A stretch of 32,000 bases of DNA, taken from Candidatus Saccharimonadota bacterium. Its GTDB lineage: Bacteria; Pseudomonadota; Alphaproteobacteria; CAJXXZ01; 1604HC. The DNA lies in contig NZ_CP043316.1 of assembly GCF_008189405.1 (NCBI RefSeq), forward strand, positions 420,001-452,000, written 5' to 3'. This document shows, one piece after another, positions 5,380 through 32,000 of this stretch; position 1 is the first letter of the stretch, and each line of letters opens with the position of its first letter. The notes beneath the pieces are model-generated. The model had not been told where the DNA came from. It did no database searches and saw nothing but the letters and a program-made list of their open reading frames with translations. Position numbers and translations under genes: made by a program.

Positions 5380-5396
5380 TCAAACACTCTGTTTCC

Positions 5397-9402: not shown

Positions 9403-9552
9403 TATTTTAATATATTTTATTCAAGATAGATATCGTGAATATATAGAATAATTTAATAGATAGGCAGTATAAATACTAAAATAAAAAACAAAGGGAATAT
9501 TGCAGAAAATTATGATAATAAATATATTATATGTAAAGAGCATGGAGAAAAA

Positions 9553-10849: not shown

Positions 10850-10984
10850 TTATGCTGAGATTTTACTTCTACCTTTTCTACGTCTTGCTGACATTACATT
10901 GCGTCCATCTTGAGTAGACATTCTTTTTCTAAATCCATGTCTTCTTTTTCTGACTAATTTACTTGGTTGATAAGTACGTTTCAT
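10850..10984 (-). CDS. rpmH: 50S ribosomal protein L34
   Basis: My own translation gives [44 protein letters not shown] (44 aa). It is not in the supplied track because it is short. Confidence 0.9.
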
Positions 10985-11064
10985 AGTAAAATTTTCGCGT
11001 TTTTTGTTAAATATGTCAAGAAGAGATATTGTAAAAAAAAATCATAAGGGTTAGAATTTCAACT

Positions 11065-11155
11065 GGAGAGGTGGCCGAGAGGCTTAAGGCGGCGGTTTGC
11101 TAAACCGTTATACGTTTCTAACGTATCGAGGGTTCGAATCCCTTCCTTTCCGCCA
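11065..11155 (+). tRNA. tRNA-Ser, anticodon GCU, 91 nt, CCA encoded
   Basis: I folded it by hand. The acceptor is GGAGAGG/CCTTTCC and the D stem has 3 bp. The anticodon stem is GCGGT/ACCGT with loop TTGCTAA. There is a long variable arm (ATACGT-TTCTA-ACGTAT), a T arm GAGGG-TTCGAAT-CCCTT, discriminator G and CCA. Confidence 0.85.
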
Positions 11156-11290
11156 ATTCATTTTTTTTGTATTTTATTGCGAGAGGAAGGGCAAAAACAA
11201 GATTTAAAATACCCTTCCTTTCCGATTTCATTTTATTCAATCGAGTAGATATCCTATCTTTCCGCCATCATTTTATTCAGGCGAGTAGAT
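11140..11290 (+). repeat. Degenerate direct copies of the tRNA-Ser 3-prime end plus flanking sequence (att-like scars)
   Basis: The genuine tRNA end is CCCTTCCTTTCCGCCA-ATTCATTTT (11140-11164). It recurs as CCCTTCCTTTCCG-ATTTCATTTTATTCAATCGAGTAGAT (11212-11250) and ATCCTATCTTTCCGCCA-TCATTTTATTCAGGCGAGTAGAT (11251-11290). A related ATTTTATTGCGAGAGGAAG occurs at 11171-11189. AGGAAGGG (11185-11192) is inverted relative to CCCTTCCT (11212-11219). Confidence 0.6.
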
Positions 11291-11297
11291 GAATATA

Positions 11298-11471
11298 GTA
11301 TTTTAGAAGTGCAAAATTAGCATTAGCACAATTAATGCAACTGAATCATATAATGCTCTGTACATTGCGATCGGAAGCTTCAAATTACTATAGAATAACT
11401 GTCATGCAAAATGCAGGACAGAATAAATGCATAAATATCTGGTTGAATTATGGCGTATTTTTAGTGAAATG
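11298..11471 (+). pseudogene. Truncated, frameshifted remnant of a GH108 muramidase paralog (3-prime third only)
   Basis: The nucleotide string aligns by eye to the reverse complement of 3489-3650. Two frames together read ..INATESYNALYIA / RSEASNYYRITVMQNAGQNKCINIWLNYGVF, against IATINEANSYALLCALRSEAANYYRIIVMQNANQNRFINGWLNRAYF in the intact gene. There are in-frame stops near 11318-11330. Nothing is left of the catalytic N-terminal part. Confidence 0.7.
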
Positions 11472-11473
11472 AT

Positions 11474-14413: not shown

Positions 14414-14489
14414 TTTCCTCCAATTAATTAATAACCATCAAAATTGTAATATTATGGCATAAAGCGATTAAGCCAACACAATAAATGTT

Positions 14490-14540
14490 GATAATTGCTC
14501 AGATTGTAACCTATTTTACAGGCAATTTGAATAGCAACCT
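14490..14540 (-). promoter_or_regulatory. Putative sigma-70 promoter plus conserved CAATTAT box upstream of P2
   Basis: In gene orientation it reads TTCAAA (14531-14526), a 17-nt spacer, TACAAT (14508-14503), then CTGAGCAATTATC. The same architecture and spacing occur upstream of P3, P4 and P5. Confidence 0.4.
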
Positions 14541-14613
14541 AGAATTACCTAAATTTCAATCAAACTCAACAATCAAGATTTGAGAGCCAATTTAGTATGG
14601 ATTTTTCAATTTC

Positions 14614-16773: not shown

Positions 16774-16837
16774 TTGACCTCAATCTATTAATAAGTTTCA
16801 GATTTTATAGCATAGCATACACCATGTTTCTAAAATT

Positions 16838-16880
16838 TTATAATTGACTGAAATATACATCGATTTGTATAGTTATGCAA
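16838..16880 (-). promoter_or_regulatory. Putative sigma-70 promoter plus CAATTAT box upstream of P3
   Basis: In gene orientation it reads TTGCAT (16880-16875), a 17-nt spacer, TATATT (16857-16852), then TCAGTCAATTATAAAA. Confidence 0.35.
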
Positions 16881-16999
16881 TATTACTATTAGTGTTTTTC
16901 GACGATTTAGGAAGATAATCAAGTTTCATATTATACTGATTTTCCAATTATGATTATATAGAATCACATATAACCTATGCATATTATTATCCGCTTAGT

Positions 17000-18427
17000 C
17001 TAAACATACATAATTTCATAGTGCTTCAAATTTTTCTTATATTGAATGAATTTCAATGCATCTAATAAGCTACCTTCTTCATCAATTAATCCTAAACTCT
17101 TAGCATCTCTTCCTGTATATACTTGCCCTAAACTAATCTGGCGAGAATATTCTAAACTAAACTTTCTTTGATTTGCGACTAACTTTCTAAATTGATCCAG
17201 CGCATCTTTAATATATACGATGATTTCTTTTTTCTGCTCTGCAGTAATAGGTGTATATGAGTTAATATCTGGCATATCATGTGAATCTATATTTTCTACA
17301 TTCACCCCTGGTGTTTGAATATGTACATGATTCATAATAACCCCAATTGATCCAACTAATGCACATTTAGGAGCAAATATCTTATCTGCACTCAAAGCTA
17401 ATATGTATGATCCAGATGCACAAATATCTTTAATAGATGCCACAAGCAACTTTTTCTCTTTCAGCTTTATCAATGCATTATATATTTCATTGGAAATGTA
17501 CGCACTCCCTCCTCCGCTATCAATTCGCAATATCACAGCTTTAATTCTAGGATTTCTCGCAATATTATCTATTTGACTTATAAAGCTCATATTTCCTAAA
17601 TAAGATCCAGCACGAATAGTACCATTAACATTGATCACTGCAATTTTATTATATGATTTTCTATCTTTGCATATTCTAGCATATTTGAATGTACTCAATT
17701 TATTATTATATCTGCTACTCCAAGTGGCAAAGTTAGATATATTAATAAAAGAATATTTCTTTGCGATATCTGCATTCTTATGCATTCCGAGCATTCCATT
17801 TTCAATATTAGTATGTAATTTAATATCATTGATTACTAAATCAGAACATGCTTTTAACAATTTTTTCAACCCATCCTTATATTCATCACTCATGCTGTTC
17901 CTAGATTCACTTTCTGGGGTTTTAAATTCTCCAGTTGCAATACTAGTAACTTCAATTCCTTGAGCCTTTAATGCATCACGTACAAATGGCATATGTATGT
18001 GAATTCCAGAAATATGGCTCATTTCATTTTGTGTTAACGTAATACTTGATGCATGAGAAGCTAAATACAATGATTTAAATGTCAAAGATGGAATATAAAA
18101 ATCCACAAATTTCTTATTTCTCTTAAATAGATCAAATACTTGGGTCAATTCATTAATATTAGCGATTGAATCTTCACTTGCACAAAAAGCTCCCTGATAA
18201 TTAATCGCAATGCCTCGTACTTTAGGATCATGCGCAGCTTTGTTTAATAAGCATAAAAATTGATTGAACTGATTATGCTGGAAATATAAATCATCAAACC
18301 CATAGGTCAAAGTAATTTTATTACTATATTGATACTTAAACATTTGATAAAAAGATTTCATTGAACTAAATCCCAATAAAACAAACAAAAAATTTCTTAA
18401 AAGCTTCATATGCTGCTCATTGTACAA
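17000..18427 (-). CDS. sppA: Signal peptide peptidase SppA (S49 family), two-domain form
   Basis: There is an N-terminal membrane anchor. The C-terminal domain reads RIDSGGGSAYISNEIYNALIKLKE..ICASGSYILALSADKIFA..VGSIGV. The N-terminal domain is a degenerate copy. Confidence 0.8.
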   Translation of the reverse strand: MYNEQHMKLLRNFLFVLLGFSSMKSFYQMFKYQYSNKITLTYGFDDLYFQHNQFNQFLCLLNKAAHDPKVRGIAINYQGAFCASEDSIANINELTQVFDLFKRNKKFVDFYIPSLTFKSLYLASHASSITLTQNEMSHISGIHIHMPFVRDALKAQGIEVTSIATGEFKTPESESRNSMSDEYKDGLKKLLKACSDLVINDIKLHTNIENGMLGMHKNADIAKKYSFINISNFATWSSRYNNKLSTFKYARICKDRKSYNKIAVINVNGTIRAGSYLGNMSFISQIDNIARNPRIKAVILRIDSGGGSAYISNEIYNALIKLKEKKLLVASIKDICASGSYILALSADKIFAPKCALVGSIGVIMNHVHIQTPGVNVENIDSHDMPDINSYTPITAEQKKEIIVYIKDALDQFRKLVANQRKFSLEYSRQISLGQVYTGRDAKSLGLIDEEGSLLDALKFIQYKKNLKHYEIMYV

Positions 18428-18554
18428 TTATATTAATCTTTTATCTATGTCACATATACCATAAACAGTAATAACTGAAATAAAATTCAAATCTCTATCA
18501 CATTATTCAGTTTTTTGGGAATCGCTAATTTTCAAAAATCAAAAATTTGAGAAT

Positions 18555-19367
18555 TTATTTTATATCATTCTCAGGGCTTCTCACTCCAATTGTATGATAT
18601 CCACTATCTACGTAAATGATTTCCCCGGTCACACCATGAGATAATTCACTCACTAAGTATGTCGCAGTTCCACCAACTTCTTCCAAAGTAGTATTTGCTT
18701 TAATTGGGGAATGCGTTTTATGCCATGTTAGCAATTCTGGGAAATCTTTAATCGCTGATGAAGCCAAAGTTCTTACTGGTCCAGCAGAAATACAGTTTAC
18801 TCTAATATTATCCACACCAAAATCATTCGCCAAGTACATCACACTAGCTTCCAACGCACTTTTCGCTACTCCCATAACATTATAATTCGGAATATATTTT
18901 ACTGCTCCATAATATGAAAGTGTGATCATGGACCCACCATTTTTCATTAATGGGGCACATTCTCTAGCTGCTGCTGTGAAAGAATAACAGGAAATATTCA
19001 TTGCCTGAGCAAATGCATCTTTTGTAACATCTGAGTACTTACCATTCATATATGTTTTATCTGCAAATGCAATTGAGTGTACAAGAAAATCCACATTATC
19101 CCAATGATTTCCAACTTTATTGAAGAATCCAGCAATTTCGCCTTCGTTATCAGCATCACATGGATACGCAAAACTAGCATTTAGCTGATCTGCGATCCCA
19201 ACTGCTCTACTTTCTAGATTCGGATGGTAACTAATTCCAATTTCAGCTCCATGATTCACAAAGGACTCCGCGATACCAGACGCAATAGATCTGTTATTTG
19301 CAACCCCCATAATTATACCTTTTTTACCTTTTAACAAGTTACTTTTACAATCATCTGTAGTGTTCAA
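18555..19367 (-). CDS. fabI: Enoyl-ACP reductase (NADH), FabI
   Basis: Evidence is LLKGKKGIIMGVANNRSIASGIA, HSIAFA, SYYGA..IPNYNVMGVAKSALEA and INCISAGPVRTLA. Confidence 0.9.
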   Translation of the reverse strand: MNTTDDCKSNLLKGKKGIIMGVANNRSIASGIAESFVNHGAEIGISYHPNLESRAVGIADQLNASFAYPCDADNEGEIAGFFNKVGNHWDNVDFLVHSIAFADKTYMNGKYSDVTKDAFAQAMNISCYSFTAAARECAPLMKNGGSMITLSYYGAVKYIPNYNVMGVAKSALEASVMYLANDFGVDNIRVNCISAGPVRTLASSAIKDFPELLTWHKTHSPIKANTTLEEVGGTATYLVSELSHGVTGEIIYVDSGYHTIGVRSPENDIK

Positions 19368-19517
19368 TTCACACCCCTTACAGGTCGAATTTTATGCATT
19401 AGTATTTATTTTGTCAAACTGATTAATTATTGCTGACTAATTATTACTAACTATGCACTATAATTTTCAAATGCATACCCACTTTTGAAAAGAGATGGGT
19501 TTATATGCTTTTGCTAC

Positions 19518-21794
19518 TTATTTTCTAATATGAGAAGGGCTTTTCTCTCTTAGAAAATCACCATGAGGCTTTCCTGCTGCGACTTGATTATCAAACCCAG
19601 ACCAATCGCTAATCCTTACATGCAAACTACCATGATTATTTGTTGAATATAACCAATCTGGAGAACTTTCAAGATAGTTTGTTAATAGAATTTTATCTGA
19701 CCTATTATATGTAGTTATATAAATCTCTTCATCAGAATATATATCACTAGGTAGTCTCAATACATTTTTTGTAATCATTTCACTTATTTTATAACCAGCA
19801 TAATTAAGATCATCATATTTAAATGCTATAGCGCTATCACCATTGCTACATAATTTACTATATCTACTCATTATATCCATGCTTTTTATACGATCATACC
19901 AATTTTGATGTATATGAGGACAATTAGGTAGTGTTCCATGTCCATTAGATACATACATCATACTAACTTTAAAAAATTTATCTAAAAACTTCATTGTGCT
20001 CCATTGATTTTCAGATCCATGATGAGGTGCTATACAAATAATATCATGATTTTTACTGTCATGACCCAATAAATCTCTTAATAAGTCAGTAGATATATAA
20101 CTTTCTTTTTCAAGCTTTGATGGCACGCTACTTATTAATCCCAAAATTGTACTATCCTCAGCATCTCCTGTACAAATCATTGATAAATACTTTGTTTTTC
20201 CATTTGATCTATCTTGATATTGATGTGTAAACGAAATAATCGGACTTGATGCATTATCATTACCTGCAATATCCGTATTCATAGACCATATGTATATATA
20301 ATCTTTCAACTGAGCAATCGCATTATCAAATGCACCTAAATACCCTACCAAATTTTTTATCTCTTCATTCTTTTTCTGATTAGCATGCGTTTCCATTTCA
20401 TTTAATCTTCTTATTGCCTTTGCTTCTGCTGTTTTTTCTGCTAACACTCCTTTGTTTATTGCATTTTTTACTAATCTTTCTTTTTCTACATCTGTTACTT
20501 CTGCTTTCATTGCTTCTTTTGCTTTTAATGCTCCGTGCACTGCTAATTTTGCTGCTGCTTCTGCTTCTGATGCTCTTTCTGCTGCTTTTTCTGCTGCTTT
20601 TTCTTTTACTTCTAATACTTTTGCCTCTTCTGCCTCTATTTTATTGACTGCATCTATTGCTTCTACTGCACCTATTGCTTCTACTGCTTTTTTTACATCT
20701 TCTTCTTTTTCTGTTACTTTTTCTATTGCTTTTTCTATTGCTTTTATTGTTGCATTTTTCTTTAATGTTCCTATTTTTGCTTTTTCTGCTACATTTTTTG
20801 CTTTTTTCTCTTCTGCTTTTTCTTTTGCTTCTCTTAATTCATCTATTGCCTTATTTAGTTTGTCTTTCATTTTTATTACTTTGTTTGCTACTGTTGTTGC
20901 TTCATCTATTGCTTTTGTTGCTACTTTTGCTTCTGTTTCTGCTTCTTCTGCTTTTATTGCTAATTCTACTGCATCTTTTACTGCATCTTTTACTGCATCT
21001 TCTTCTATTGCATGATTTATTACTGACTCTACTGCTTCTTTTGCTTCTTTTGCTTCTTCTTTGTTGTTATACTTTATTATTGCTTTGCTTTTTTCTGTTT
21101 TTATTGCTTCTATTTTATTTTTCTTTTGCTTATCTATGCATTCATCACTGAATTGACCTTGAGCATACTCCCACATCTCTTTAATATTTCTAGCAGGAAA
21201 ATCACTATCTATACTATCTTTCCAACAATATGGCTCTATTGCATATCTACTTAAAAGCTGCTCTACTTTCCATGATTCTTCTGTATTTTTACCAGCCCAA
21301 TCTCCACATAGAAAGGCAATTTTAGCTAATCCATCAGGAATATTTAATTTGCCTATATTATTTATATGATCTAGATCTGGGTGTGATAAGATGATTACAA
21401 GTAAATTTAAATCTGAGAATTTAAGCGCATCTGTAATACCTTTTAACTGCATTTTTGAAACATCACTACGCTTATTTGCGCATACTGATTTATAATATAT
21501 ACTAGAATTTACATTATCATCTGATAAAGAATCGTCTATAGCATTATATGCACTCTTAATTTCCTCATTACGCATCATATTATTCCATGAATTCTCACTG
21601 CTCCCACAATCATAAAGGAATCCAATTCGCTCTTCTCCGTTAGGACGCATAGGATTTTGCACAACATACTTATTCAACTGGCAATTTCCTTGTCCAACGT
21701 CAAACACATGCATCTCACTACTAATTGGCGCAGCGTCAACTGATATACCAACAACCAATATCAAGCTGCATAATAGCATCATATTATTCTTCAT
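19518..21794 (-). CDS. Paralog P4 of the ComEC-type MBL-fold family, with a roughly 265-aa Ala/Glu/Lys-rich insert
   Basis: AGAGG lies upstream of the ATG. The signal peptide has a VDA-AP site. Motifs are EMHVFDVGQGNCQL, IGFLYDCGS, LLVIILSHPDLDHIN, FLCGDW, IYIWSMNT, SPIISFTH, ICTGDAEDST, IAPHHGS, YVSNGHGTLPNCPHIHQNW and SPDWLYSTNNHGS. Confidence 0.8.
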   Translation of the reverse strand: MKNNMMLLCSLILVVGISVDAAPISSEMHVFDVGQGNCQLNKYVVQNPMRPNGEERIGFLYDCGSSENSWNNMMRNEEIKSAYNAIDDSLSDDNVNSSIYYKSVCANKRSDVSKMQLKGITDALKFSDLNLLVIILSHPDLDHINNIGKLNIPDGLAKIAFLCGDWAGKNTEESWKVEQLLSRYAIEPYCWKDSIDSDFPARNIKEMWEYAQGQFSDECIDKQKKNKIEAIKTEKSKAIIKYNNKEEAKEAKEAVESVINHAIEEDAVKDAVKDAVELAIKAEEAETEAKVATKAIDEATTVANKVIKMKDKLNKAIDELREAKEKAEEKKAKNVAEKAKIGTLKKNATIKAIEKAIEKVTEKEEDVKKAVEAIGAVEAIDAVNKIEAEEAKVLEVKEKAAEKAAERASEAEAAAKLAVHGALKAKEAMKAEVTDVEKERLVKNAINKGVLAEKTAEAKAIRRLNEMETHANQKKNEEIKNLVGYLGAFDNAIAQLKDYIYIWSMNTDIAGNDNASSPIISFTHQYQDRSNGKTKYLSMICTGDAEDSTILGLISSVPSKLEKESYISTDLLRDLLGHDSKNHDIICIAPHHGSENQWSTMKFLDKFFKVSMMYVSNGHGTLPNCPHIHQNWYDRIKSMDIMSRYSKLCSNGDSAIAFKYDDLNYAGYKISEMITKNVLRLPSDIYSDEEIYITTYNRSDKILLTNYLESSPDWLYSTNNHGSLHVRISDWSGFDNQVAAGKPHGDFLREKSPSHIRK
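20345..21140 (-). repeat. Low-complexity, degenerate A/E/K-rich (coiled-coil-like) coding insert in P4
   Basis: The plus strand is an almost pure pyrimidine run. It translates as EAKEAKEAVE..AVKDAVKDAVELAIKAEEAETEAK..AIEKAIEKVTEKEE..AVEAIGAVEAIDAV... It lies between the FLCGDW and FDNAIAQL motifs. Confidence 0.7.
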
Positions 21795-21905
21795 TTTACC
21801 TCTATCCTCATAATGCCCAGGTTTTTACAATGAATTGCACCTGAAACTTTATAATTGTTCAGACTATAACCTATTTTCCCAGCAATTTAAAGAGTAATGC
21901 CTGAA
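21795..21905 (-). promoter_or_regulatory. Conserved upstream region of P4 (putative promoter, 5-prime UTR, RBS)
   Basis: It is near-identical to 25368-25478. In gene orientation it reads TTTAAA (21891-21886), a 17-nt spacer, TATAGT (21868-21863), then CTGAACAATTATAAA. Confidence 0.5.
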
Positions 21906-21969
21906 TATCACGAAAATTCGTTTATTGCCTAAAATCCACATAAAAAGTACAGTAAAATCAGGAGAATAT

Positions 21970-22698
21970 ATGAGTATCGATACATTTTTATCTGAATTGG
22001 AATCTGGAAACACAAGAATCGTACGTAAAAATCAAGGAAAATGGGAATTAAATCAACCTGCTTTCTCCAAAATAAACGAAATATTCAAATCGGACAAAAA
22101 AATCAGCAAAATCGACGGATTGGTCAAATGGGCAGACAAAATCGATATGCAAAGCAACCTATTACATGATCAAGATTTGCTCAACAAAGATTTCCGACTA
22201 GTACCAGGTTCATGGGTAAGGCGCGGAGCATATATCGGCCCAAAATCCGTAATCATGACAAACTCATTCGTGAATATCGGGGCCCACATCGGGGATGAAA
22301 CCATGGTGGATAGCGGAGTCACAATCGGATCCTGCGCATACATCGGCGCACAATGCCACATCTCATCCAATGTCATCATCGCCGGCGTACTCGAACCATC
22401 ACAACACATGCCAGTAATTATCGAAGATAACGTGTTTATCGGCGCACAATCACTCATTGCTGAAGGGGTTGTAGTGCCAGAAGGATGCGTAATAGGTGCA
22501 GGTACAAAACTTACATCCTCCACTAAAATCTTCGACGTCGATGGGGATGAAATCAACGAAATCGAACCGTACAGCGTCATAATCCCAGGAACATACAGCA
22601 AAACCTCCAAAATCTCATTCTCATGCGCTGTAGTTATCAAGAAAGTCGACAAAAACACAAAATCTAAAACAAACATCAATGAATTACTTAGAGATTGA
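21970..22698 (+). CDS. dapD: 2,3,4,5-tetrahydropyridine-2,6-dicarboxylate N-succinyltransferase
   Basis: The hexapeptide-repeat core is RLVPGSWVRRGAYIGPKSVIMTNSFVNIGAHIGDETMVDSGVTIGSCAYIGAQCHISSNVIIAGVLEP. I prefer the ATG at 21970, which is preceded by AGGAG, over the TTG at 21925 used by the track. Confidence 0.9.
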   Translation: MSIDTFLSELESGNTRIVRKNQGKWELNQPAFSKINEIFKSDKKISKIDGLVKWADKIDMQSNLLHDQDLLNKDFRLVPGSWVRRGAYIGPKSVIMTNSFVNIGAHIGDETMVDSGVTIGSCAYIGAQCHISSNVIIAGVLEPSQHMPVIIEDNVFIGAQSLIAEGVVVPEGCVIGAGTKLTSSTKIFDVDGDEINEIEPYSVIIPGTYSKTSKISFSCAVVIKKVDKNTKSKTNINELLRD

Positions 22699-22742
22699 GG
22701 TGTTTTAGCAATGGAAATAGATCTATGTACTGGTAGGTTTTA

Positions 22743-22930
22743 ATGAATTGTCTAAATATTTGCATCTCATCATCACTATTTTTCGAGGAACGTTTTATTC
22801 ATATGGTTGCTCATGGGCACTACACCTAATCGGGTACAATCACGAAACCTAGTAACAAAGCAAAATCATGCAGGACGTAGAAATAAAATTGCTCAAAACC
22901 TTTAATATCCAAAATCCTTATTTAACTTAA
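22743..22930 (+). pseudogene. ybeY: Remnant of the endoribonuclease gene ybeY (C-terminal part, frameshift plus two in-frame stops)
   Basis: Frame 1 reads ..LNICISSSLFFEERFIHMVAHG. After a 1-nt loss in a G run, the next frame reads ALHLIGYNHET-stop-stop-QSKIMQDVEIKLLKTFNIQNPYLT. This matches the YbeY signature H.vHG.LHL.GYDH....M...E..iL....i..PY. The N-terminal roughly 90 aa of a normal YbeY are missing. Confidence 0.55.
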
Positions 22931-22961
22931 TAGAAATATCAATAGTTTTTATCTATATATA

Positions 22962-25367
22962 TTATGAGCTTTGACCAGATTGATTATCATCTCTTACAGC
23001 TGAAGGAACACTGCCAGCCCTACCTGTGCTATTATGCAACGCAACTGGCACACGTGATGATGGTGGTGAAGGTGAAGATGCATGTGTAAGGCCACGCCAA
23101 TCACGTATATAAATGTGCAAACTGCCATGATTATTTGTTGAATATAGCCAAGATTGGCAATGTTTATGCTCAGCAGATTCATTATATGAATCTGATGCAG
23201 ATTTTTTCTCACTATACATAGTTATGCTTATCTCTTTATCATAAATATCATAGCTACCCTTTAACTTTATCTTATCGCCTGACGAATCATAAACTGAGAG
23301 TCCCATAGCATCCTTACTATTAATACATAGATAGTTATACCTCTTTATAATATCATTATTAAATATGCCAATACTCATTGTTCTATACCATCTCTTATTA
23401 ATATGTGGATGTCGCCCTCCATGCCCATTAGATACATAAACCATGCTCATCTTCATTAAATCATTTAATAAAAGCACAGTATTTGCCTGACCTGCAGAAC
23501 CATGATGTGGCGCAACACAAATAATATCATGATCACTAGTATCACTTGTTATAGAATCATATAATGCATATAATCCAACTTTATGACTATCTGTCGCCTG
23601 CATCAATGCATTTACATATGAGTATTTTTGTAATTTCATATTCCTACGCACAATATCTTTTCTATCTTTTAAATATAGTGGCAACCCTCCTTCCGATGAT
23701 ACACTATTCTCACCTTTGCCACACACTGTACTATCCTCAGCATCTCCCGTACAAATCATTGATAAATATTTTGTCCCTGGTACAGTATGTGTAAATGAAA
23801 TAATAGGACTTACTGCATTCTGATCATTTCCAGGCGCAGTATTCATAGACCATATGTATATATAATCTTTTAACTGAGCAACTGCATTATCAAATAAATC
23901 TAAACATCCATCATATTTTTCTAATTCACCTACTTTCTTTTCTGCTTCCTTTGCTTCCCTTATTTCTTTCTCTCCTTCTTCTATTGCTTTGCTTGTTTCT
24001 TTCTCTCCCTCTTCTATTGCTTTTCTTATTTTTTTCTCTTCTGCTTCTATTGCTTTGCTTGTTTTTTTCTCTGCTGCTTCCTTTGCTTCCCTTATTGCTT
24101 TCTTTTCTGCTTCTATTGCTTTGCTTGTTTTTTTCTCTGCTGCTTCCTTTGCTTCCCTTATTGCTTTCTTTTCTGCTTCTATTGCTTTGCTTGTTTTTTT
24201 CTCTGCTGCTTCCTTTGCTTCCCTTATTGCTTTCTTTTCTGCTTCTATTGCTTTGCTTGTTTCTTTCTCTCCTTCTTCTATTGCTTTTCTTATTTTTTTC
24301 TCTTCTGCTTCTATTGCTTTGCTTGTTTTTTTCTCTGCTGCTTCCTTTGCTTCCCTTATTGCTTTCTTTTCTGCTTCTATTGCTTTGCTTGTTTTTTTCT
24401 CTGCTGCTTCCTTTGCTTCCCTTATTGCTTTCTTTTCTGCTTCTATTGCTTTGCTTGTTTCTTTCTCTCCTTCTTCTATTGCTTTTCTTATTTTTTTCTC
24501 TTCTGCTTCTATTGCTTTGCTTGTTTTTTTCTCTGCTGCTTCCTTTGCTTCCCTTATTGCTTTCTTTTCTGCTTCTATTGCTTTGCTTGTTTTTTTCTCT
24601 GCTGCTTCCTTTGCTTCCCTTATTGCTTTCTTTTCTGCTTCTATTGCTTTGCTTGTTTTTTCCTCTGCTGCTTCCTTTGCTTCCCTTACTGCTATTTCTA
24701 TATTCTTTTCTTCTTCCTTTATTTTTTCTATTACATCATCTATTGCTGCATATATATGATTATTCCTATTTTTAACCTTGTTTTCTAATTGAGATTTTGC
24801 CTTATCCCACAACCGTAAAATATTCCCAGAAAAGAAATTACTGCTTTTTTCTTTATCCCAATAAAATGGCTCTATTGCATACTTACTTAATACTTCTTGT
24901 ACATTCCATGATTCTACAGTATTTTTCCCAACAAAATCACCACATAAAAATGATATAATTTTTAGTGTGTCATTATCAATTTTTGCTTTTATATCAGTAC
25001 TTTTCAAAACAACATCTATCTTATTTATATGATCTAAATCTGGATGTGACAAAACTATTACAAGTAAATCTAAATCTACAAGCTTGTCGTTAATGCTATG
25101 AATTAATTTATCAGAATTCAATATACCTCCAGGTAAGACACCTTTACCTCCTAAACGCTGAGGAAACTCACAACTCCCGCAATCATACAGGAATCCAATT
25201 CGCTCTTCTCCATTAGGACGCATAGGATTTTGCACAACATACGTATTCAACTGGCAGTTGCCTTGTCCTACATCAAATACATGCATCTCACTACTAATTG
25301 GCGCAGCATCGATCGATATACCAACAACCAGTATCAGGCTGCGTAATAGCATCATATTATTCTTCAT
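22962..25367 (-). CDS. Paralog P5 of the ComEC-type MBL-fold family, with a 12-unit 22-aa tandem repeat insert and a Pro/Ser-rich tail
   Basis: The 5-prime end is near-identical to P4. Motifs are EMHVFDVGQGNCQL, IGFLYDCGS, LLVIVLSHPDLDHIN, FLCGDF, IYIWSMNT, SPIISFTH, ICTGDAEDST, VAPHHGS, YVSNGHGGRHPHINKRW and CQSWLYSTNNHGS. Confidence 0.8.
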   Translation of the reverse strand: MKNNMMLLRSLILVVGISIDAAPISSEMHVFDVGQGNCQLNTYVVQNPMRPNGEERIGFLYDCGSCEFPQRLGGKGVLPGGILNSDKLIHSINDKLVDLDLLVIVLSHPDLDHINKIDVVLKSTDIKAKIDNDTLKIISFLCGDFVGKNTVESWNVQEVLSKYAIEPFYWDKEKSSNFFSGNILRLWDKAKSQLENKVKNRNNHIYAAIDDVIEKIKEEEKNIEIAVREAKEAAEEKTSKAIEAEKKAIREAKEAAEKKTSKAIEAEKKAIREAKEAAEKKTSKAIEAEEKKIRKAIEEGEKETSKAIEAEKKAIREAKEAAEKKTSKAIEAEKKAIREAKEAAEKKTSKAIEAEEKKIRKAIEEGEKETSKAIEAEKKAIREAKEAAEKKTSKAIEAEKKAIREAKEAAEKKTSKAIEAEKKAIREAKEAAEKKTSKAIEAEEKKIRKAIEEGEKETSKAIEEGEKEIREAKEAEKKVGELEKYDGCLDLFDNAVAQLKDYIYIWSMNTAPGNDQNAVSPIISFTHTVPGTKYLSMICTGDAEDSTVCGKGENSVSSEGGLPLYLKDRKDIVRRNMKLQKYSYVNALMQATDSHKVGLYALYDSITSDTSDHDIICVAPHHGSAGQANTVLLLNDLMKMSMVYVSNGHGGRHPHINKRWYRTMSIGIFNNDIIKRYNYLCINSKDAMGLSVYDSSGDKIKLKGSYDIYDKEISITMYSEKKSASDSYNESAEHKHCQSWLYSTNNHGSLHIYIRDWRGLTHASSPSPPSSRVPVALHNSTGRAGSVPSAVRDDNQSGQSS
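23930..24716 (-). repeat. 66-bp (22-aa) in-frame tandem array, about 12 units, with 198-bp higher-order structure
   Basis: Unit A is KAIEAEKKAIREAKEAAEKKTS and unit B is KAIEAEEKKIRKAIEEGEKETS. The order in gene direction is A-prime A A B A A B A A A B, then a hybrid unit. Many units are identical at the nucleotide level. Confidence 0.9.
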
Positions 25368-25478
25368 TTTACCTCTATCCTCATAATGTCCAGGTTTTTA
25401 CAACGAACTGCACCTGAAACTTTATAATTGTTCAGACTATAACCTATTTTCCCAGCAATTTAAAGGGTAATGCCTATA
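25368..25478 (-). promoter_or_regulatory. Conserved upstream region of P5 (putative promoter, 5-prime UTR, RBS)
   Basis: It is near-identical to 21795-21905, with a handful of substitutions. In gene orientation it reads TTTAAA (25464-25459), a 17-nt spacer, TATAGT (25441-25436), then CTGAACAATTATAAA. Confidence 0.5.
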
Positions 25479-25559
25479 AATTGAATTATAAATCATAAGC
25501 AACTTTCAAAAATGGCATGAATCATATAAAATTGATCTTATAATAAATGGAGGTGTTTT

Positions 25560-26105
25560 ATGCTTGGTGTTGGATCAAAGTTTCCTGAATTTAACTTGCA
25601 AAGTGTATTAGGCAAGGATCAGAAGAATACGTTTAAAGAAATCAATTCTTCTTCATACAACGGCAAATGGATTATATTTTTCTTCTGGCCTAAGGATTTT
25701 ACATTTGTATGCCCTACAGAAATCAGTGCTTTTTCAGATTTGCAAAAGGATTTCGAAGAGAGAAATACACAAGTTCTAGGTGCTAGTATGGATTCTGAGT
25801 TTGTGCATTTGGCATGGAAGAAAGAAAATTCTGAAATTGGACGCGTAAACTTCCCTATGTTAGCAGACATTGGTGGATCTTTGACAGATGAATTAGGAAT
25901 CAAGGATGCAAAACATGGTGTTTCTCAACGTGCAACATATATAATTGACCCGAATATGGTTATTAGACATGTTAGCGTAGTTGATTTGAATGTTGGAAGA
26001 AGTCCTGAAGAAATATTACGTACTTTGGATGCGCTGCAAAATGGTGGGTTGTGTCCTGTAAACTGGAAAAAAGGGAGTCCTACCCTTCAACCAGGAAATG
26101 AATAA
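25560..26105 (+). CDS. ahpC: Typical 2-Cys peroxiredoxin (AhpC/Prx1 type)
   Basis: The peroxidatic Cys lies in FFFWPKDFTFVCPTEI and the resolving Cys in GGLCPVNWKKG. GGAGG lies upstream of the ATG. Confidence 0.9.
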   Translation: MLGVGSKFPEFNLQSVLGKDQKNTFKEINSSSYNGKWIIFFFWPKDFTFVCPTEISAFSDLQKDFEERNTQVLGASMDSEFVHLAWKKENSEIGRVNFPMLADIGGSLTDELGIKDAKHGVSQRATYIIDPNMVIRHVSVVDLNVGRSPEEILRTLDALQNGGLCPVNWKKGSPTLQPGNE

Positions 26106-26194
26106 AACGACTAATGAATCAATGATCAGTCAAGATTCAAACTGTCAAAATACATATATCAATCAGAAAGCAAATTGCAAGAAAGAATCTACAT

Positions 26195-27565
26195 ATGAAT
26201 CAAAGCTCTAATTATCAAAAATCGAAAATAAAATCAGGTATGTCTCAAAAATCACAAATAGCACATAGGCAATTCTTGTCTAGTAGTGCATGTGTTAGCT
26301 TTTTTACATTAATATCAAGAATTTTAGGGTATTTCAGAGATATTATAATATTAAACTGGGTTGGCATTGGAGCTATTACAGATGCATATATATTGGCAAC
26401 AAAATTTCCATCATTATTCAGAAAAGTTATATCTGATGGAAGTATGAATAACTTACTAATACCTATGCTTAAAGATATCAAAATCAAACAGCAGAATGAA
26501 AAATCATTCATCATGCAATTATCTAAAAAATTGTTTATGCGTATATTTATAGTAGTATCCTTATTTTTACTACTAATCAAACCATTGTCAAAAATAATCT
26601 TTACCAATTTATCTAACTTATCTCAGGAATTTTTTGTGATATTTTCATATTTTATATTCCCTAGCCTACTATTTATGGGACTATCTAGTATTTGGATGAG
26701 CTTATTAAACCACAATAAGAAATTCTTTGCTTCTGCTGTCTCAAGCGTAATATGTAATATAATTGCAATTATTACCCTTCTCATAAGCTATAAATATAAT
26801 TTTTCATTTTTATTTATAGGGATAGCAATTTTATTCGGTAATATAGCACAGTTTCTATGGATATCATTTAATGTGTATAAGCACAATTTATTATACAATC
26901 AACAATCTAGTGATAACTTCCAATCTGAAATGAAAATATTCAATTCTAGGTTTCTAAATATATCATTTTCATCAGGCATATCACAAATTATGATTATGTT
27001 TTCATCTTGGTTCGCCAGCTTTCTCCCAACAGGAAATATATCGTATTTAGCATTTGCAGATCGTATAATGCAAGTTCCTCTCAGTTTAATAGGCATCATA
27101 TTTAGCACGACATTCTTACTTTATTTAACACAATACATTAAAGATAAAGAGTTCATTAAAGCAAAAAAATTATATAATAAAGTATGGCTCTATGGCTTTA
27201 TAGTATCATGCGTAATCTCATTATTCATTTTTCTTTTTGCATATCAAATATGTAAAATACTATTCTTAAGAGGGAAAATGACAGCAAATGATATATATAA
27301 TATAAGTATGTATTTGAAGATATATATATTAAGCGTACCTGCATATACACTAAGCAAAACAATGAATGCAGTATTTTTTGCATATGGAGATACAAAAACC
27401 CCATTAAAAGGAGCTGCAATACAATTCGCTTCAAATATCATTTTAATACCTACACTTTTTTATATGGGTTCAATAGGAATTTCTATTAGTTTCTTAGCAT
27501 CTGCTTGGATTTACACACTATTCATGGGAGTTAATATGCGCATATCCTATAAATTTACAGTTTAA
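26195..27565 (+). CDS. murJ: Lipid II flippase MurJ (MviN family)
   Basis: The N-terminus reads TLISRILGYFRDIIILNWVGIGAITDAYILATKFPSLFRKVISDGSMNNLLIPML, and the protein is polytopic and hydrophobic throughout. It is somewhat short (456 aa) and the start codon is uncertain. Confidence 0.85.
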   Translation: MNQSSNYQKSKIKSGMSQKSQIAHRQFLSSSACVSFFTLISRILGYFRDIIILNWVGIGAITDAYILATKFPSLFRKVISDGSMNNLLIPMLKDIKIKQQNEKSFIMQLSKKLFMRIFIVVSLFLLLIKPLSKIIFTNLSNLSQEFFVIFSYFIFPSLLFMGLSSIWMSLLNHNKKFFASAVSSVICNIIAIITLLISYKYNFSFLFIGIAILFGNIAQFLWISFNVYKHNLLYNQQSSDNFQSEMKIFNSRFLNISFSSGISQIMIMFSSWFASFLPTGNISYLAFADRIMQVPLSLIGIIFSTTFLLYLTQYIKDKEFIKAKKLYNKVWLYGFIVSCVISLFIFLFAYQICKILFLRGKMTANDIYNISMYLKIYILSVPAYTLSKTMNAVFFAYGDTKTPLKGAAIQFASNIILIPTLFYMGSIGISISFLASAWIYTLFMGVNMRISYKFTV

Positions 27566-27585
27566 TATCAGCACAATAAATAAAA

Positions 27586-28731
27586 TTAGCTATATGTGAT
27601 TTCTGCATTGCATTTCATAATATCCTTCATACTATCTATGCCTCCTACTGCAGTTGTATGAATATGCAAATTAGCATCATGAAGTGATTTGGAATCTATA
27701 TCAATTGGCATACATATCATATCCCAATATAAAATTGAATTTTCTACTTTTAACATATTACAATTCATATGCGCCAGCACAAACTTATTAGCATGCATAC
27801 CATCCTCTATAAATAGTTCATTTACAAGAATACTACTAGCATTGTTTCTACAGTTCTTTATATGTATTCTATCAGCTACCATTTTTATCAAATATGCTTC
27901 AATATTTCCATCTAAACTAATATTTTCATATGTTCCACGAAAACTACAGTGAAGTGTTGGCAAATCACTCAATGGACGTATTACATGCACACTTCCTCCA
28001 TTAGAATCAATATCTAAATCTATCTTGCTGCCATCCCAATCTCTAGCATTTATAACAAGCTCATCTTTCAAATCTTTCACATTAATAGTTACTTTATTTC
28101 TTCTTGGCCCATTATTAAATCTATCTGCTAATGCGTAAGCTTCCGTATCTTTATCTTTTACATGTAACATTCTAATATTTCTAATAACAATATTATCATT
28201 TCTAATACATTCTTCTCTATATTGTTTCAACATATCATGAATATATGTAACTAACTCAACATCAGTTGGGCCCATTAAAACAACTGTATTTACAAACTTA
28301 TCTTCGCTCCTTATATGACGTTGCAACCTTATTATATCTACATATGTGAAATCATACTTACCTTGATGTATACGAAATAACATATTCCATTCAACACTCA
28401 TATATTGCAAAATATTAGATATAACACCCATTCCATATAATAATTGATCTGCTAATTCTTGTAATCTGCTTATATAGCTAAATTCAAATTTATCATCATT
28501 TTTAAGCACTGACTTAAATAAATTCTTATATTCATTATCTTTAATCATAGATGCTGCTATATACCCAGATAACATAATTCTTCTAACACAACTTGAAGTA
28601 TCTACGTACTTTATATAACTTTCATCAAATATTTGATGTGTTTTTGCATCTTCTATCTTAGTTTCAAAAGTAGTATTGGCACTGCTATAATATAGCATAC
28701 AAGCAGTAATTATTTTATTTATATTAACCAT
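27586..28731 (-). CDS. Hypothetical protein, 381 aa, with no family that I can recognise
   Basis: It is a long uninterrupted ORF with non-low-complexity composition, wedged convergently against murJ. I saw no recognisable motifs. Confidence 0.5.
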   Translation of the reverse strand: MVNINKIITACMLYYSSANTTFETKIEDAKTHQIFDESYIKYVDTSSCVRRIMLSGYIAASMIKDNEYKNLFKSVLKNDDKFEFSYISRLQELADQLLYGMGVISNILQYMSVEWNMLFRIHQGKYDFTYVDIIRLQRHIRSEDKFVNTVVLMGPTDVELVTYIHDMLKQYREECIRNDNIVIRNIRMLHVKDKDTEAYALADRFNNGPRRNKVTINVKDLKDELVINARDWDGSKIDLDIDSNGGSVHVIRPLSDLPTLHCSFRGTYENISLDGNIEAYLIKMVADRIHIKNCRNNASSILVNELFIEDGMHANKFVLAHMNCNMLKVENSILYWDMICMPIDIDSKSLHDANLHIHTTAVGGIDSMKDIMKCNAEITYS

Positions 28732-28857
28732 AATTTAATTGTAAATATAATATATATGCATATAGTAGATCATTATTATAAATAATATAAAATTCACTAT
28801 ATCACCACATGTTAGTTATATTATATAATTTGTCAATTAAATGTATTAAAATATGCT

Positions 28858-29577
28858 ATGAAATTCGTTAAAGCACATGGACTAGGAAATGATTTTATTA
28901 TGATATTTCAAGATATTTCTAAAGAAGATATGATATTATTATCTGACAGAAAATTAGGGATTGGATGTGATCAGGTCATTCAGAACATAAATAATAATGG
29001 ACAATATAATGTAAGGTTTTGGAATCAAGATGGATCAGAAGCAAACTTGTGTGGTAATGGAATTCGCTGTTTAGCGCAATATTACGATAGAGTAATCAAT
29101 AAATTTCATACAAACTCAGGAATAATTCATACAGTTAAGCTGAATAATGAACAGGTTGCATTTTCACTACCAGTCATACCTGTAATAAAGCAAATGAGTT
29201 ATAAATTGCCTACTTATGACGTTCACATTGGTAATGAACATATTGTTATATTCATAAATAATGAGCCAGATTGGGATCAAATTACACATGATTTTCAAGA
29301 TTATTTAAGCATAAAAAACATTATGTGTATTTGGCATGATAAACAATGGAATATTAGGTCATGGGAGCGTGGTGTAGGCAGGACATTAGCATGTGGATCA
29401 GGAACTATTGCTGCAGCATGTGCAGTTTGGGAGAATAATAAATCTCTCACACTAGGCAATAAAGATAATATTACATTCCATACTGAAATAGGTGAATTAT
29501 CTGTTATAAAGAAAAAACAAATATGGCAAATTGGACCAGCAAATATTGTAGCCAATGGTAATTTTAAGCTGATTTAA
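28858..29577 (+). CDS. dapF: Diaminopimelate epimerase (short form)
   Basis: Evidence is FVKAHGLGNDFIMI, NQDGSEANLCGNGIRC (first catalytic Cys) and LACGSGTIAAA (second catalytic Cys). Confidence 0.9.
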   Translation: MKFVKAHGLGNDFIMIFQDISKEDMILLSDRKLGIGCDQVIQNINNNGQYNVRFWNQDGSEANLCGNGIRCLAQYYDRVINKFHTNSGIIHTVKLNNEQVAFSLPVIPVIKQMSYKLPTYDVHIGNEHIVIFINNEPDWDQITHDFQDYLSIKNIMCIWHDKQWNIRSWERGVGRTLACGSGTIAAACAVWENNKSLTLGNKDNITFHTEIGELSVIKKKQIWQIGPANIVANGNFKLI

Positions 29578-30063
29578 ATTGCAAATATAACTCTGCATGG
29601 TATCGAGTTTACTAAATATATATATCAAAAAACAACACTACAATTATAATACATCATAATATTCGAAATTCACTATATATAGTAATGTTTAAATTAACAA
29701 TGCAAATAGTGTTTAAATAAATAATATGTAAAATATAATCATAATCTGTTATACATAAGTTCTAATCATATGCGCAATAATAATATGATATAATACCTCC
29801 GAGCAAGGCTCAACTAAAGGAGGCTATATGTATAAAGGTTTCTTATATATAAGTTTCATTATTACAAAAATGCTAAATAGCACGATTGATTCGAAATATC
29901 ATTTGCTTTTAAAAGAAGAGTTAGCATTAACTATCAAAATCAATATACAATATAAATCAGAATTTAATTGATTCTTATGCCTATTTTACTAATCTATGAT
30001 CTATAATTTATCACACTACTTCTGGTCTAAAACTCTATAAATTCAATTTGAACTGCGTAATTC

Positions 30064-30909
30064 TCAATCTAAAATATCTAATATTCTGATAATCTCTGAT
30101 CGCATTTTAGATCTATGTACAATCTTATCTATAAATCCATTGTTAAATTGGAAATCAGCACTTTGAAAATCATCTGGCAATTCTACTCTAATAGTTTGCT
30201 GAATAACTCTTTTTCCTGCAAACCCTATTAATGCATCAGGTTCTGCTAAAGTAATAGTTCCTAACATTGCAAATGAAGCCTGCACACCACCAGTGGTAGG
30301 GTCACATAATACAGAGATATATGGCAAACCAGCTTCCTTCACTTGCTTAATAGCAATAGTAGTACGAGCCATTTGAACTAAAGAAAACATTCCTTCTTGC
30401 ATTCTAGCTCCACCAGAAGATGAAAATATAATTAAAGGGATTCCATTTTCTACAGCAAGATCAGCAGCATATACAATTGCATTTCCAAGTGCACGCCCCA
30501 TAGACCCACCTATAAATTTAAAATTCATAGATAATGCAACTACTTTTTTACCTTCTACACTTCCAATTCCAATTAAGAAACAATCATCTGAATCACATAT
30601 CTCTCTATACTTTTTCAATCTAGATTTATAAGAAATTTTATCAGTAAAATTAATAGGATCATCAGAGTATTTCTTAGGCTCTTCTACAACAAAACATTTC
30701 TCAGATCCGAAAAATGCGCATAATCTCTGCTTAGCTGTCATTCGTTCATGGTGATCACAAATAGTACAAACTAATAAATTATCTTCTATTTGCTGCTTGA
30801 AAATCATCTCTCCACATTTATTACATTTGTGCCAAAGGTTCTCTGGTATGCTAGAAGACTTTGTAGATCTAATTTTAGGAATCCAATTCGTTAACCAATT
30901 CATTAACAC
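30064..30909 (-). CDS. accD: Acetyl-CoA carboxylase carboxyltransferase beta subunit
   Basis: The N-terminal zinc ribbon is WHKCNKCGEMIF..LVCTICDHHERMTAKQRL. The carboxyltransferase core is FIGGSMG..SSSGGARMQEG. Confidence 0.95.
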   Translation of the reverse strand: MLMNWLTNWIPKIRSTKSSSIPENLWHKCNKCGEMIFKQQIEDNLLVCTICDHHERMTAKQRLCAFFGSEKCFVVEEPKKYSDDPINFTDKISYKSRLKKYREICDSDDCFLIGIGSVEGKKVVALSMNFKFIGGSMGRALGNAIVYAADLAVENGIPLIIFSSSGGARMQEGMFSLVQMARTTIAIKQVKEAGLPYISVLCDPTTGGVQASFAMLGTITLAEPDALIGFAGKRVIQQTIRVELPDDFQSADFQFNNGFIDKIVHRSKMRSEIIRILDILD

Positions 30910-31132
30910 AATTTTATGATAATTTATCTTTTTCTGCTAGTAACCATCAAATATCCTTCCCTGCTATATGATAAAATTAATAGTGACGCTATATTATTGT
31001 CCAATAATACTATTATCATAATAGGGTGAATTACATGTTATACCATAAAATTACAAAATCATGGCACAGTAAAAAAACAATATATAGTATAGTAAATGAA
31101 TACACAAATATGATACATATTACAATATACCA

Positions 31133-31765
31133 TCAAATCATATGCAAAATAGAGCTTATAAATATTAAAGAAGGGGCTTTTCGCTGCAGCATACACTGCA
31201 TATTAATATGAGATATAACATTAAAAACATCTACATATGATCTTTTGATTCTTTTAATCAGAAATTGAAATACATCATCATGTATATCTAATCCAAAATC
31301 TATACTCATCTTTCTCATAATTTCTATGCAAATTTCTTCAGTTGGGCTTGGAATATGCATAGATGTCATAGTGTTAAACCTAGATTGTATATCAGGAATA
31401 AATTGTTTTAAAATATTAGAATTTTCTATAAGCCATAATGTATGTGTTTTATGGTGCATAGAATTAAATAGAATATTAAATATATCTTCTTGTATAAAGC
31501 TCTCGATTTTATCTATTATTAGGGGTTGGGTATAGTCAATATTTTGTACATTTTTTATAAAAGAGGCATTTGTAAGTTTTTTCCATATATGCGCTAAATG
31601 GGTTTTGCCAGATTTTGGTTGGCCAATAAGTATAGTATGGTAATTCCACATATTCTGACTTTTAATCCATGAAATAACATGCCTATTTGTTTCATTAACA
31701 AAAAAACTGCTTTCTGAAAAATCAATATTCCATTGAAAATCTAATATCATTTGCATACAAGCCAT
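31133..31765 (-). CDS. hda: DnaA-related AAA+ protein, Hda/HdaA-like regulatory inactivator of DnaA
   Basis: It has a Walker A (LIGQPKSGKTHLAHIW) and a short size (210 aa). The N-terminal QMILDF resembles the Q-x-x-L-x-F beta-clamp-binding motif of Hda proteins. Confidence 0.6.
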   Translation of the reverse strand: MACMQMILDFQWNIDFSESSFFVNETNRHVISWIKSQNMWNYHTILIGQPKSGKTHLAHIWKKLTNASFIKNVQNIDYTQPLIIDKIESFIQEDIFNILFNSMHHKTHTLWLIENSNILKQFIPDIQSRFNTMTSMHIPSPTEEICIEIMRKMSIDFGLDIHDDVFQFLIKRIKRSYVDVFNVISHINMQCMLQRKAPSLIFISSILHMI

Positions 31766-32000
31766 TTTTTATATGAAAACCACTTATGTATAAATTGATA
31801 TTTGTATTTATATACCCTATACCTAGAATTGAATCTTAATTTATATACCATACTGTACTTACATAGAATATATTGTATAACATATTGATGTAATGTTTTC
31901 GCCAAATTATATAGGTGTAATATGCATTTCAAGCTGTTTTGCTTATACTTCAAGACCATCTTCGCTTAATAATACCTGTTCTCCATACTGCTGCAAAAAT

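Follow-up and report, generated by a model that had tools for sequence, protein, structure and literature searches.

Proteins whose size varies through intragenic recombination between tandem repeats are well known in bacteria, and include TRP32, TRP47 and TRP120 of Ehrlichia, Msp1a of Anaplasma, the M and alpha-C proteins of streptococci and the Vlp and Vsa proteins of Mycoplasma. Repeats of 22 residues made of two 11-residue halves, with a period of 3.67 residues, occur in the amphipathic helices that act at lipid surfaces (exchangeable apolipoproteins, alpha-synuclein and group-3 LEA proteins). The metallo-beta-lactamase (MBL) domain of ComEC is a metal-dependent nuclease. In the present work we have analyzed a bacterial DNA stretch of 32,000 nucleotides (the window, with positions counted from its first base) in which a single gene, P5, harbors an array of 66-bp tandem repeats. 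Our preferred reading, to which we assign a probability of about 0.6, is that the array is an in-frame, transcribed minisatellite forming a helical hairpin stalk that splits an exported, metal-dependent MBL hydrolase of the ComEC type. The array, its reading frame, the family and motifs of the protein, its transcription, and the discordance in copy number between sequence sources (12 vs. 9 units) are the demonstrated parts of this reading. As a kind of feature, variable tandem repeats are familiar from the secreted proteins of intracellular bacteria; new are the position of the repeat inside an MBL domain, the undescribed paralogous family to which the protein belongs, and a diplonemid symbiont as the carrier. 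The gene and the array are located as follows:

22962-25367 (stop codon included), minus strand: gene P5, encoding an 801-aa, putatively exported paralogue of the ComEC-type MBL-fold hydrolases (family hidden Markov model, HMM, E=7e-106)
23925-24716, minus strand: the array, twelve units of 66 bp (22 aa) cut in the frame of the open reading frame (ORF), the end units being degenerate
24105-24658, minus strand: core of the array, perfectly periodic at 198 bp by direct-repeat comparison
24453-24650 and 24255-24452 (span 24255-24650), minus strand: two identical A-A-B higher-order blocks, only one of which is present in the assembly OX638200.1

The full 32-kb window was run through Tandem Repeats Finder, which detected the array at 23934-24693 as 11.5 indel-free copies of 66 bp with 90% matches. 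Its score was 1247, and the second-highest within the window was 174. The array is real and lies far beyond chance. Along the gene, the units follow the order A' A A B A A B A A A B* C', unit A being KAIEAEKKAIREAKEAAEKKTS and unit B KAIEAEEKKIRKAIEEGEKETS. The seven A units share one nucleotide sequence throughout. Of the B units, two are the same and the third (B*) presents a single synonymous base change, and A differs from B at 10 of the 66 bases. The longest perfect direct repeat extends over 356 bp (24105-24460 being equal to 24303-24658), its two copies being offset by 198 bp. The 11-residue halves of the 22-aa unit are also related to each other (identity of 0.39 at lag 11 and of 0.71 at lag 22) and therefore, together with the 66-bp unit and the 198-bp block, they define a hierarchy of 33, 66, and 198 bp. 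The unit length is divisible by 3, and at the DNA level the units hardly differ.

The array had been the object of an original prediction made by a model from the sequence, without database searches. The description given there was correct to within 5 bp, and the twelve or so in-frame 22-aa units of types A and B were found with exactly the sequences listed. The 198-bp higher-order structure that it described is reflected in the 356-bp perfect repeat at that same offset, and the minus-strand translation places the array, as stated, between FLCGDF and FDNAVAQL. A recent expansion or homogenisation, also put forward there, fits a perfect repeat of 356 bp in a gene that retains only ~65% nucleotide identity to its nearest paralogue in the window.

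Alternative interpretations of the same DNA were discarded. Two plus-strand ORFs that run across the array (23951-24775 and 23989-24759, with 274 and 256 aa, rich in Leu, Phe, and Ser) are stop-free artefacts of the repeat, since only the minus-strand frame continues into conserved protein at both sides. A CRISPR-like or non-coding satellite was ruled out as well, the units abutting without spacers and being in frame with conserved protein on both sides. An explanation at the RNA level was likewise ruled out, Rfam finding only a tRNA-Ser in the window; this tRNA-Ser(GCT), at 11065-11155 on the plus strand, was the sole RNA gene detected there by both Rfam and ARAGORN. As for base composition, the coding strand of the array (23925-24716) is 86% purine, and the plus-strand 1-kb bin holding most of it (24001-25000) displays AT and GC skews of -0.66 and -0.42, respectively. 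A polypurine tract of this kind might promote non-B DNA structures and slippage.

The P5 protein with its repeats deleted was used as the query in homologue searches. Proteins 100% identical to this query were obtained from Candidatus Cytomitobacter primus and from the transcriptome of Diplonema japonicum, along with paralogues and relatives at 22-49% identity. Judged by these identities, the source organism is C. primus, which belongs to the Holosporaceae and lives as an endosymbiont in the diplonemid D. japonicum, a marine protist. Published work on these symbionts gives a genome of ~622 kb for C. primus, which retains RecA/RecFOR and MutSL and has few pseudogenes (bioRxiv 10.1101/719211). 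The RefSeq counterpart of the 801-aa protein is WP_284442953.1, with 735 aa. The gene is transcribed, as indicated by the Trinity transcript EP01064_P032868 in the transcriptome of D. japonicum (EukProt EP01064). In the available literature on these symbionts we found no mention of this family or of the repeat. The two ends of the protein have features of their own:

25302-25367, minus strand: N-terminal hydrophobic segment MKNNMMLLRSLILVVGISIDAA, signal-peptide-like by a hydropathy heuristic
22965-23090, minus strand: C-terminal tail of 42 residues rich in Ser, Pro, and Gly (47% G+C, vs. 34% in the gene outside the array)

The N-terminal segment reaches a maximum 12-residue Kyte-Doolittle hydropathy of 2.40, and AlphaFold models a helix at residues 2-19. 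By the same heuristic, a hydrophobic segment precedes the first beta-strand in 20 of 29 family members. All this suggests that the protein is exported. The C-terminal tail is predicted to be disordered, with a predicted local distance difference test (pLDDT) score of ~30, and is not common to the paralogues.

The assignment of the P5 protein to the MBL fold, an alpha-beta/beta-alpha sandwich, is based on conserved motifs, on profile comparison and on structure comparison. The elements concerned are the following:

24822-25295, minus strand: N-terminal half of the MBL domain, residues 25-182 (FDVGQGN, D62, SHPDLDH), from conserved columns, with pLDDT 85-95
25029-25049, minus strand: metal-binding motif 2, SHPDLDH, residues 107-113, from the alignment of 33 relatives
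23103-23891, minus strand: C-terminal half of the MBL domain, residues 493-755 (IYIWSMNT, TGDAED, PHHGS, H655), from conserved columns and the profile match to ComEC/Rec2
23733-23750, minus strand: TGDAED motif, within the C-terminal MBL half
23496-23510, minus strand: PHHGS motif, within the C-terminal MBL half

Residues GQGN, D62, SHxDxDH, N509, N517, G541-D542-A543, P620-H621-H622-G623-S624, and H655 were invariant or nearly so in the 33 relatives. Within motif 2, which has the form S-H-x-D-x-D-H in the ComEC branch, S107 was invariant whereas H108, D110, D112, and H113 were conserved in at least 90% of the sequences. The ordered series GQG.., D, SHxDxDH, N..S strand, TGDAE, and PHHGS is what we take to be the motif set of the ComEC-type MBL branch. 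When the family profile was compared with the PDB, it matched the C-terminal MBL domains in solved structures of ComEC/Rec2 (9vcb, E=3.3e-7; 9vcf, 3.7e-7; 9vc9, 1.8e-5; 9vc6, 9.7e-5; 9ic4, 4.6e-4) through the C-terminal MBL half. The AlphaFold model of the repeat-deleted protein reached a predicted template-modelling score (pTM) of 0.77, with pLDDT 85-95 in the core, and the four best PDB matches obtained with it in Foldseek were all MBL enzymes (2xr1, with E=1.2e-3 and a probability of 0.98, followed by 7fct, 6auf, and 1ww1). Because of the conserved motifs, the profile match to ComEC/Rec2 structures and the Foldseek matches, we have filed the protein as a putative divergent ComEC-type MBL hydrolase (COG2333-like branch). 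The MBL core of the original prediction thus gained support from the same three lines of evidence. Given the known metal-dependent nuclease activity of the ComEC MBL domain, the P5 protein is, by analogy, probably a nuclease or phosphodiesterase.

The array splits the MBL domain, with residues 25-182 on its N-terminal side and residues from 493 onwards on its C-terminal side. When the full-length model was searched with Foldseek, the helices dominated the outcome, and the search yielded only non-significant hairpins of Rad50, SMC, and chemoreceptor (MCP) proteins (E 0.2 or weaker, template-modelling score, TM-score, <0.15), after which the repeat-deleted construct was modelled. In that model, the flanks of the deleted array make a helix-turn-helix (residues 183-201 and 208-227) between two beta-strands, and in the alignment of 33 relatives the site is mostly occupied by a short helical linker; the array therefore extends a pre-existing alpha-hairpin and not a plain loop. 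Of the earlier proposal that the array sits in a loop of the MBL core, the position was right, whereas the plain loop has to be replaced by this conserved helix-turn-helix. In the AlphaFold model of the full-length protein, residues 183-490 form four long helices (183-275, 283-340, 345-407, and 415-490). The turn falls near the middle, at 341-344, and each arm is broken once. Both halves of the domain carry ligands of one metal site, and hence the insert must return to its origin. Taking these model features together, the insert is most likely an antiparallel helical hairpin of ~150 residues per arm and ~20 nm that would project from the catalytic domain.

The composition of the array is consistent with a helical insert. 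Glu (27%), Lys (25%), Ala (22%), and Ile (10%) predominate, Glu, Lys, and Arg together making up 56%, and i,i+4 pairs are of opposite charge in 61 cases vs. 27 of the same charge. The hydrophobic period is 3.66 residues, which corresponds to a stripe of the hendecad type. The apolar arc of the unit comprises the positions Ala/Ala, Ala/Lys, Ala/Ala, Glu/Ala, Ile/Thr, and Ile/Lys, with no Pro, Leu or aromatic residue. In the mechanism that we propose, the 22-aa units, each consisting of two related 11-mers, would encode a continuous amphipathic helix rich in Lys, Glu, and Ala; the hairpin would stand at the tip of the family-wide helix-turn-helix, its units being so alike that they could re-pair at any copy number, and each arm would grow by ~33 residues, or ~5 nm, with every 198-bp A-A-B block.

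Several results weigh against our preferred reading. Regarding the fold, the full P5 protein had no Pfam match at E<=0.1, and Lactamase_B reached E=0.065 at best, with 13.6 bits on the repeat-deleted protein (vs. a cut-off of 22.7); the ComEC model TIGR00361 of NCBIfam was weak over the part that matches the ComEC/Rec2 domains (15 bits vs. a 190-bit cut-off), and the Foldseek matches to MBL enzymes were weak too (TM-scores 0.16-0.38, E 1e-3 or weaker). When 29 relatives were scanned singly against Pfam, Lactamase_B appeared in only two of them, in both cases below threshold. The scores thus stay under the curated thresholds, and by its sequence relationships the family is a divergent MBL branch outside the coverage of the curated models. 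With regard to the stalk, the long charged helical projection anticipated by the original prediction agrees with the four long helices that AlphaFold predicts, with the caveat that pLDDT in the array ranges from 35 to 80 and is <50 at the helix breaks; an apolar face that consists largely of Ala, Ile being scarce, would hold a coiled coil together only weakly, and a flexible or single-helix state of the insert is possible. Moreover, Tandem Repeats Finder revealed no comparable array in 19 related loci (Cytomitobacter-like genomes and distant relatives), and a 30-mer of unit A had no exact match in metagenome contigs. Finally, the array of 792 bp, with its perfect repeats of 356 bp, is beyond the span of MiSeq reads, and the difference of 12 vs. 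9 units could be technical.

This difference was obtained by comparison with OX638200.1 (GCA_951805245.1), a PacBio HiFi assembly of C. primus from D. japonicum YPF1604 (PMC13598402). OX638200.1 spans the whole window; positions 1-13379 are 100.000% identical, and positions 12962-32000 are 100% identical outside the array, all mismatches falling inside it, where the alignment overruns. Its array reads A' A A B A A A B* C', that is, 9 units and exactly one 198-bp A-A-B block fewer, and this is the sole difference between the two assemblies over 32 kb. A third version is that of the Trinity transcript, which contains 5 units with a chimeric first one (EKK instead of EEK) and is almost certainly a collapsed assembly. 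An exact-protein look-up of the 801-aa product found no record in the collection searched, and the 735-aa form has a RefSeq WP accession only, whereas other paralogues also have QEK accessions from the earlier GenBank record; from these two facts we infer that the window sequence probably stems from the Illumina MiSeq/SPAdes assembly that George et al. had made earlier.

The copy number could accordingly be an assembly artefact, the array being real but with one fixed count, and 12 (or 9) resulting from the traversal of a cyclic repeat graph. We give this explanation serious weight, somewhat short of even odds. It is favoured by the apparent short-read origin of the window, by the read length being exceeded, and by the clear collapse of the Trinity contig; in addition, with no other difference in 32 kb, the only one is found at the place that is hardest to assemble. 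On the other hand, short-read errors normally collapse repeats, and here the sequence derived from short reads is the longer one, opposite to the usual artefact. HiFi reads easily span 600-800 bp, and the 9 units should be a true allele of that culture. Years separate the two DNA preparations, and the clonal host strains used may have differed (YPF1603 or YPF1604), so that a real change is plausible. In our preferred reading the copy-number difference would be biological. The variation in copy number that had been predicted was seen as a discordance between assemblies (12 vs. 9), in the sense expected, and an assembly artefact would yield the same.

Perfect repeats of up to 356 bp, in a genome with RecA/RecFOR, provide substrates for unequal recombination, gene conversion, and replication slippage; the reported retention of RecA/RecFOR and MutSL makes unequal recombination and conversion mechanistically available. 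Events of this type would keep the units identical while changing their number in steps of 66 or 198 bp. As a more speculative extension, which we would hold only as a long shot, the stalk may be length-adjustable, its identical 22-aa units pairing as a self-complementary antiparallel hairpin that splits the MBL hydrolase as in Rad50, sets the distance of the enzyme, or of a partner attached to the tip, from the symbiont surface, and is tuned in ~5-nm steps through recombination between 198-bp blocks. An example of such a setting may be the symbiont-mitochondrion interface of D. japonicum, with tuning taking place within a clonal population.

The family HMM detected five members in the window, P5 included. 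The other four are:

19518-21794, minus strand: P0003, 758 aa, the closest paralogue in the window, with a non-repetitive helical insert of 266 aa rich in Lys, Ala, and Glu at the array site
14614-16773, minus strand: P0004, 719 aa, with only a short linker at the insertion site
11474-14413, minus strand: a paralogue of 979 aa (family HMM E=1.5e-101)
1364-3379, plus strand: P0006, 671 aa, without an insert

Immediately upstream of the window, the genome contains two more paralogues, of 562 aa (annotated as 'MBL fold metallo-hydrolase') and of 1015 aa. In total, at least seven paralogues occur within ~55 kb of the 622-kb genome (L020:5099-8146, minus strand, and L020:1-199 included), interspersed with housekeeping genes, out of ~500-550 protein genes. 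They differ chiefly in their inserts and C-terminal extensions. The 1015-aa paralogue (L020:5099-8146, minus strand, upstream of the window in OX638200.1) shares the N-terminus MKNNMMLLRSLILVVGISIDA with the P5 protein, ends in a trypsin-like domain (Pfam Trypsin, E=2e-13), being an MBL-protease fusion, and its C-terminal MBL half has 84% nucleotide identity to window positions 23350-23895. At the array site it has an insert of ~85 aa. The same gene contains a 9-bp repeat (x4.6) that encodes a run of the SVE tripeptide. The insert of P0003 resembles the array in its helical, charged character, the sequence being different. Since both P0003 (266 aa) and the 1015-aa paralogue (~85 aa) carry inserts at this site, the stalk seems, from these sequences, to be a maintained, length-variable feature of a sub-group, the homogenised array being present in P5 only.

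Searched against 1.84 billion representative proteins, the family profile retrieved 132 clusters at a cut-off of E<=1e-30, the number rising to 995 at E<=1e-10 and to 16,129 at E<=1e-3, a distribution according to which this is a small, distinct family within a much larger superfamily. A scan of genome contigs found relatives in C. indipagum, in two Cytomitobacter-sized chromosomes from metagenome-assembled genomes (MAGs), in 'Caedibacter' MAGs and in distant bacteria.

An opposing view of the insert is that the array is a neutral, slippage-driven filler, devoid of function, at a permissive surface site of a fast-evolving paralogue under strong drift. We consider this rather unlikely, although part of the family data agrees with it: what occupies the insertion site varies among family members between a short linker and ~290 aa, no other species has the array among the related loci scanned, the paralogues diverge quickly (P5 and P0003 have ~65% nucleotide identity), and the composition is of low complexity, 86% purine on the coding strand. 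What such a filler explains less well is that the frame is kept across 792 bp and that the gene around it is transcribed and retains every catalytic motif. Besides, a 622-kb genome with few pseudogenes keeps at least seven of these paralogues within ~55 kb, and the P0003 insert, of similar length and other sequence, has the same helical charged character, which suggests that the stalk itself is maintained.

A functional alternative would be a membrane-binding or tethering module that anchors or spaces the hydrolase at a membrane, for instance the host mitochondrial membrane by which these symbionts are wrapped. We regard it as improbable. The period of 3.66, the identity of 0.39 at lag 11 and a hydrophobic moment larger at 98 than at 100 or 103 degrees point in this direction; C. 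primus is, moreover, closely apposed to the host mitochondrion, and the authors of that observation leave open whether tethering complexes mediate the contacts (PMC13462478). Against it, the apolar face is almost all Ala, with neither Pro punctuation nor aromatic residues or Leu, and 22/6 is the only helix-like harmonic possible for a 22-aa repeat, so that the periodicity is partly forced.

Some further observations were made on the paralogues. The first 67 codons of P5 plus 108 bp upstream (25167-25475) are 92.9% identical to the corresponding segment of P0003 (21594-21902), whereas the remainder of both genes shows ~65% identity, suggesting gene conversion or a shared promoter and leader module. 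The insert of P0003 (20547-21109, minus strand) contains many short degenerate tandem repeats with periods of 9-24 bp, which may be an old decayed array or source-type material for the 66-bp array. In the 979-aa paralogue, a 51-bp tandem duplication of 92% identity (13160-13260, minus strand), present in both assemblies, doubles a conserved metal-binding motif, as LCTGDAEDSTAFELIKN and then LCTGDAEDSTAFKLVKN. In the C-terminal extension of P0004 (14614-16773), DNQLLID(K/G) occurs three times, and a charged tail resembling a coiled coil comes after it, another paralogue-specific helical module with a weak match to ERM_helical (E=5e-4). Two family members (P0036 and P0168) with long N-terminal extensions and several Trinity isoforms were detected in the transcriptome of another diplonemid, Flectonema neradi (EukProt EP01060).

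C. primus has been described as an 'energy parasite' that lives against, or is enclosed by, the host mitochondrion, and published analyses point to secreted effectors, of which few candidates have been named (PMC13462478, PMC13598402). An undescribed, putatively exported family with at least seven clustered copies, one of them fused to a trypsin-like protease, makes a concrete candidate set for the host interface. The most useful concrete result of this work is the copy-number discordance between assemblies: the array flags either a true hypervariable locus, which could serve to mark strains or populations, or an assembly error in need of correction. It also offers a natural series of stalk lengths bearing on whether length matters. 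If the variation is only technical, what is left is an ordinary low-complexity repeat in a fast-evolving paralogue.

The comparison with known systems helps to place these features. Like the repeats of apolipoproteins, synuclein and LEA proteins, the unit of P5 consists of two related 11-mers with a period close to 3.67 (peak at 3.66) and is rich in Lys, Glu, and Ala. It differs from them in lacking Pro punctuation, large apolar residues and the broad hydrophobic face, its apolar face being small and made of Ala, and in having no known lipid context. The single alpha-helix (SAH) domains of the ER/K type share with the array the richness in Glu, Lys, and Arg and the dense i,i+4 pairs of opposite charge. 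The array possesses, in contrast, a continuous Ala/Ile stripe, and an SAH of 264 residues would span ~40 nm and could not reconnect the two halves of one domain.

With the size-variable tandem-repeat proteins of Ehrlichia, Anaplasma, streptococci, and Mycoplasma, P5 has in common near-identical in-frame units, a putatively exported product and a host-associated bacterium, and it also differs between sequenced sources by whole units or blocks, for which a technical origin is possible. As in M proteins, its repeats encode a charged alpha-helix. The repeat of P5 is located inside a catalytic domain, whereas in those proteins it forms a stand-alone fibrillar or disordered region; furthermore, the host is a protist without adaptive immunity, and antigenic variation is thus not an obvious driver.

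The ordered motif set is shared with the MBL domain of ComEC/Rec2 (COG2333). Unlike ComEC/Rec2, the P5 protein has neither competence channel nor OB-fold domain and stands alone behind an N-terminal hydrophobic leader, its MBL domain is split by a helical insert of ~300 aa, it scores far under the curated cut-offs, and it belongs to a small, distinct family. In overall architecture it resembles Rad50/SbcC and SMC, whose globular catalytic head is divided by a long antiparallel coiled-coil hairpin: one globular domain is likewise made of two halves with ~300 helical residues between them that must return to their origin; AlphaFold gives the P5 protein both a turn in the middle of the insert and an 'elbow' break in each arm. 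Its head is, however, an MBL hydrolase and not an ABC ATPase, its apex carries no hook or hinge motif, and its stalk is made of identical repeats.

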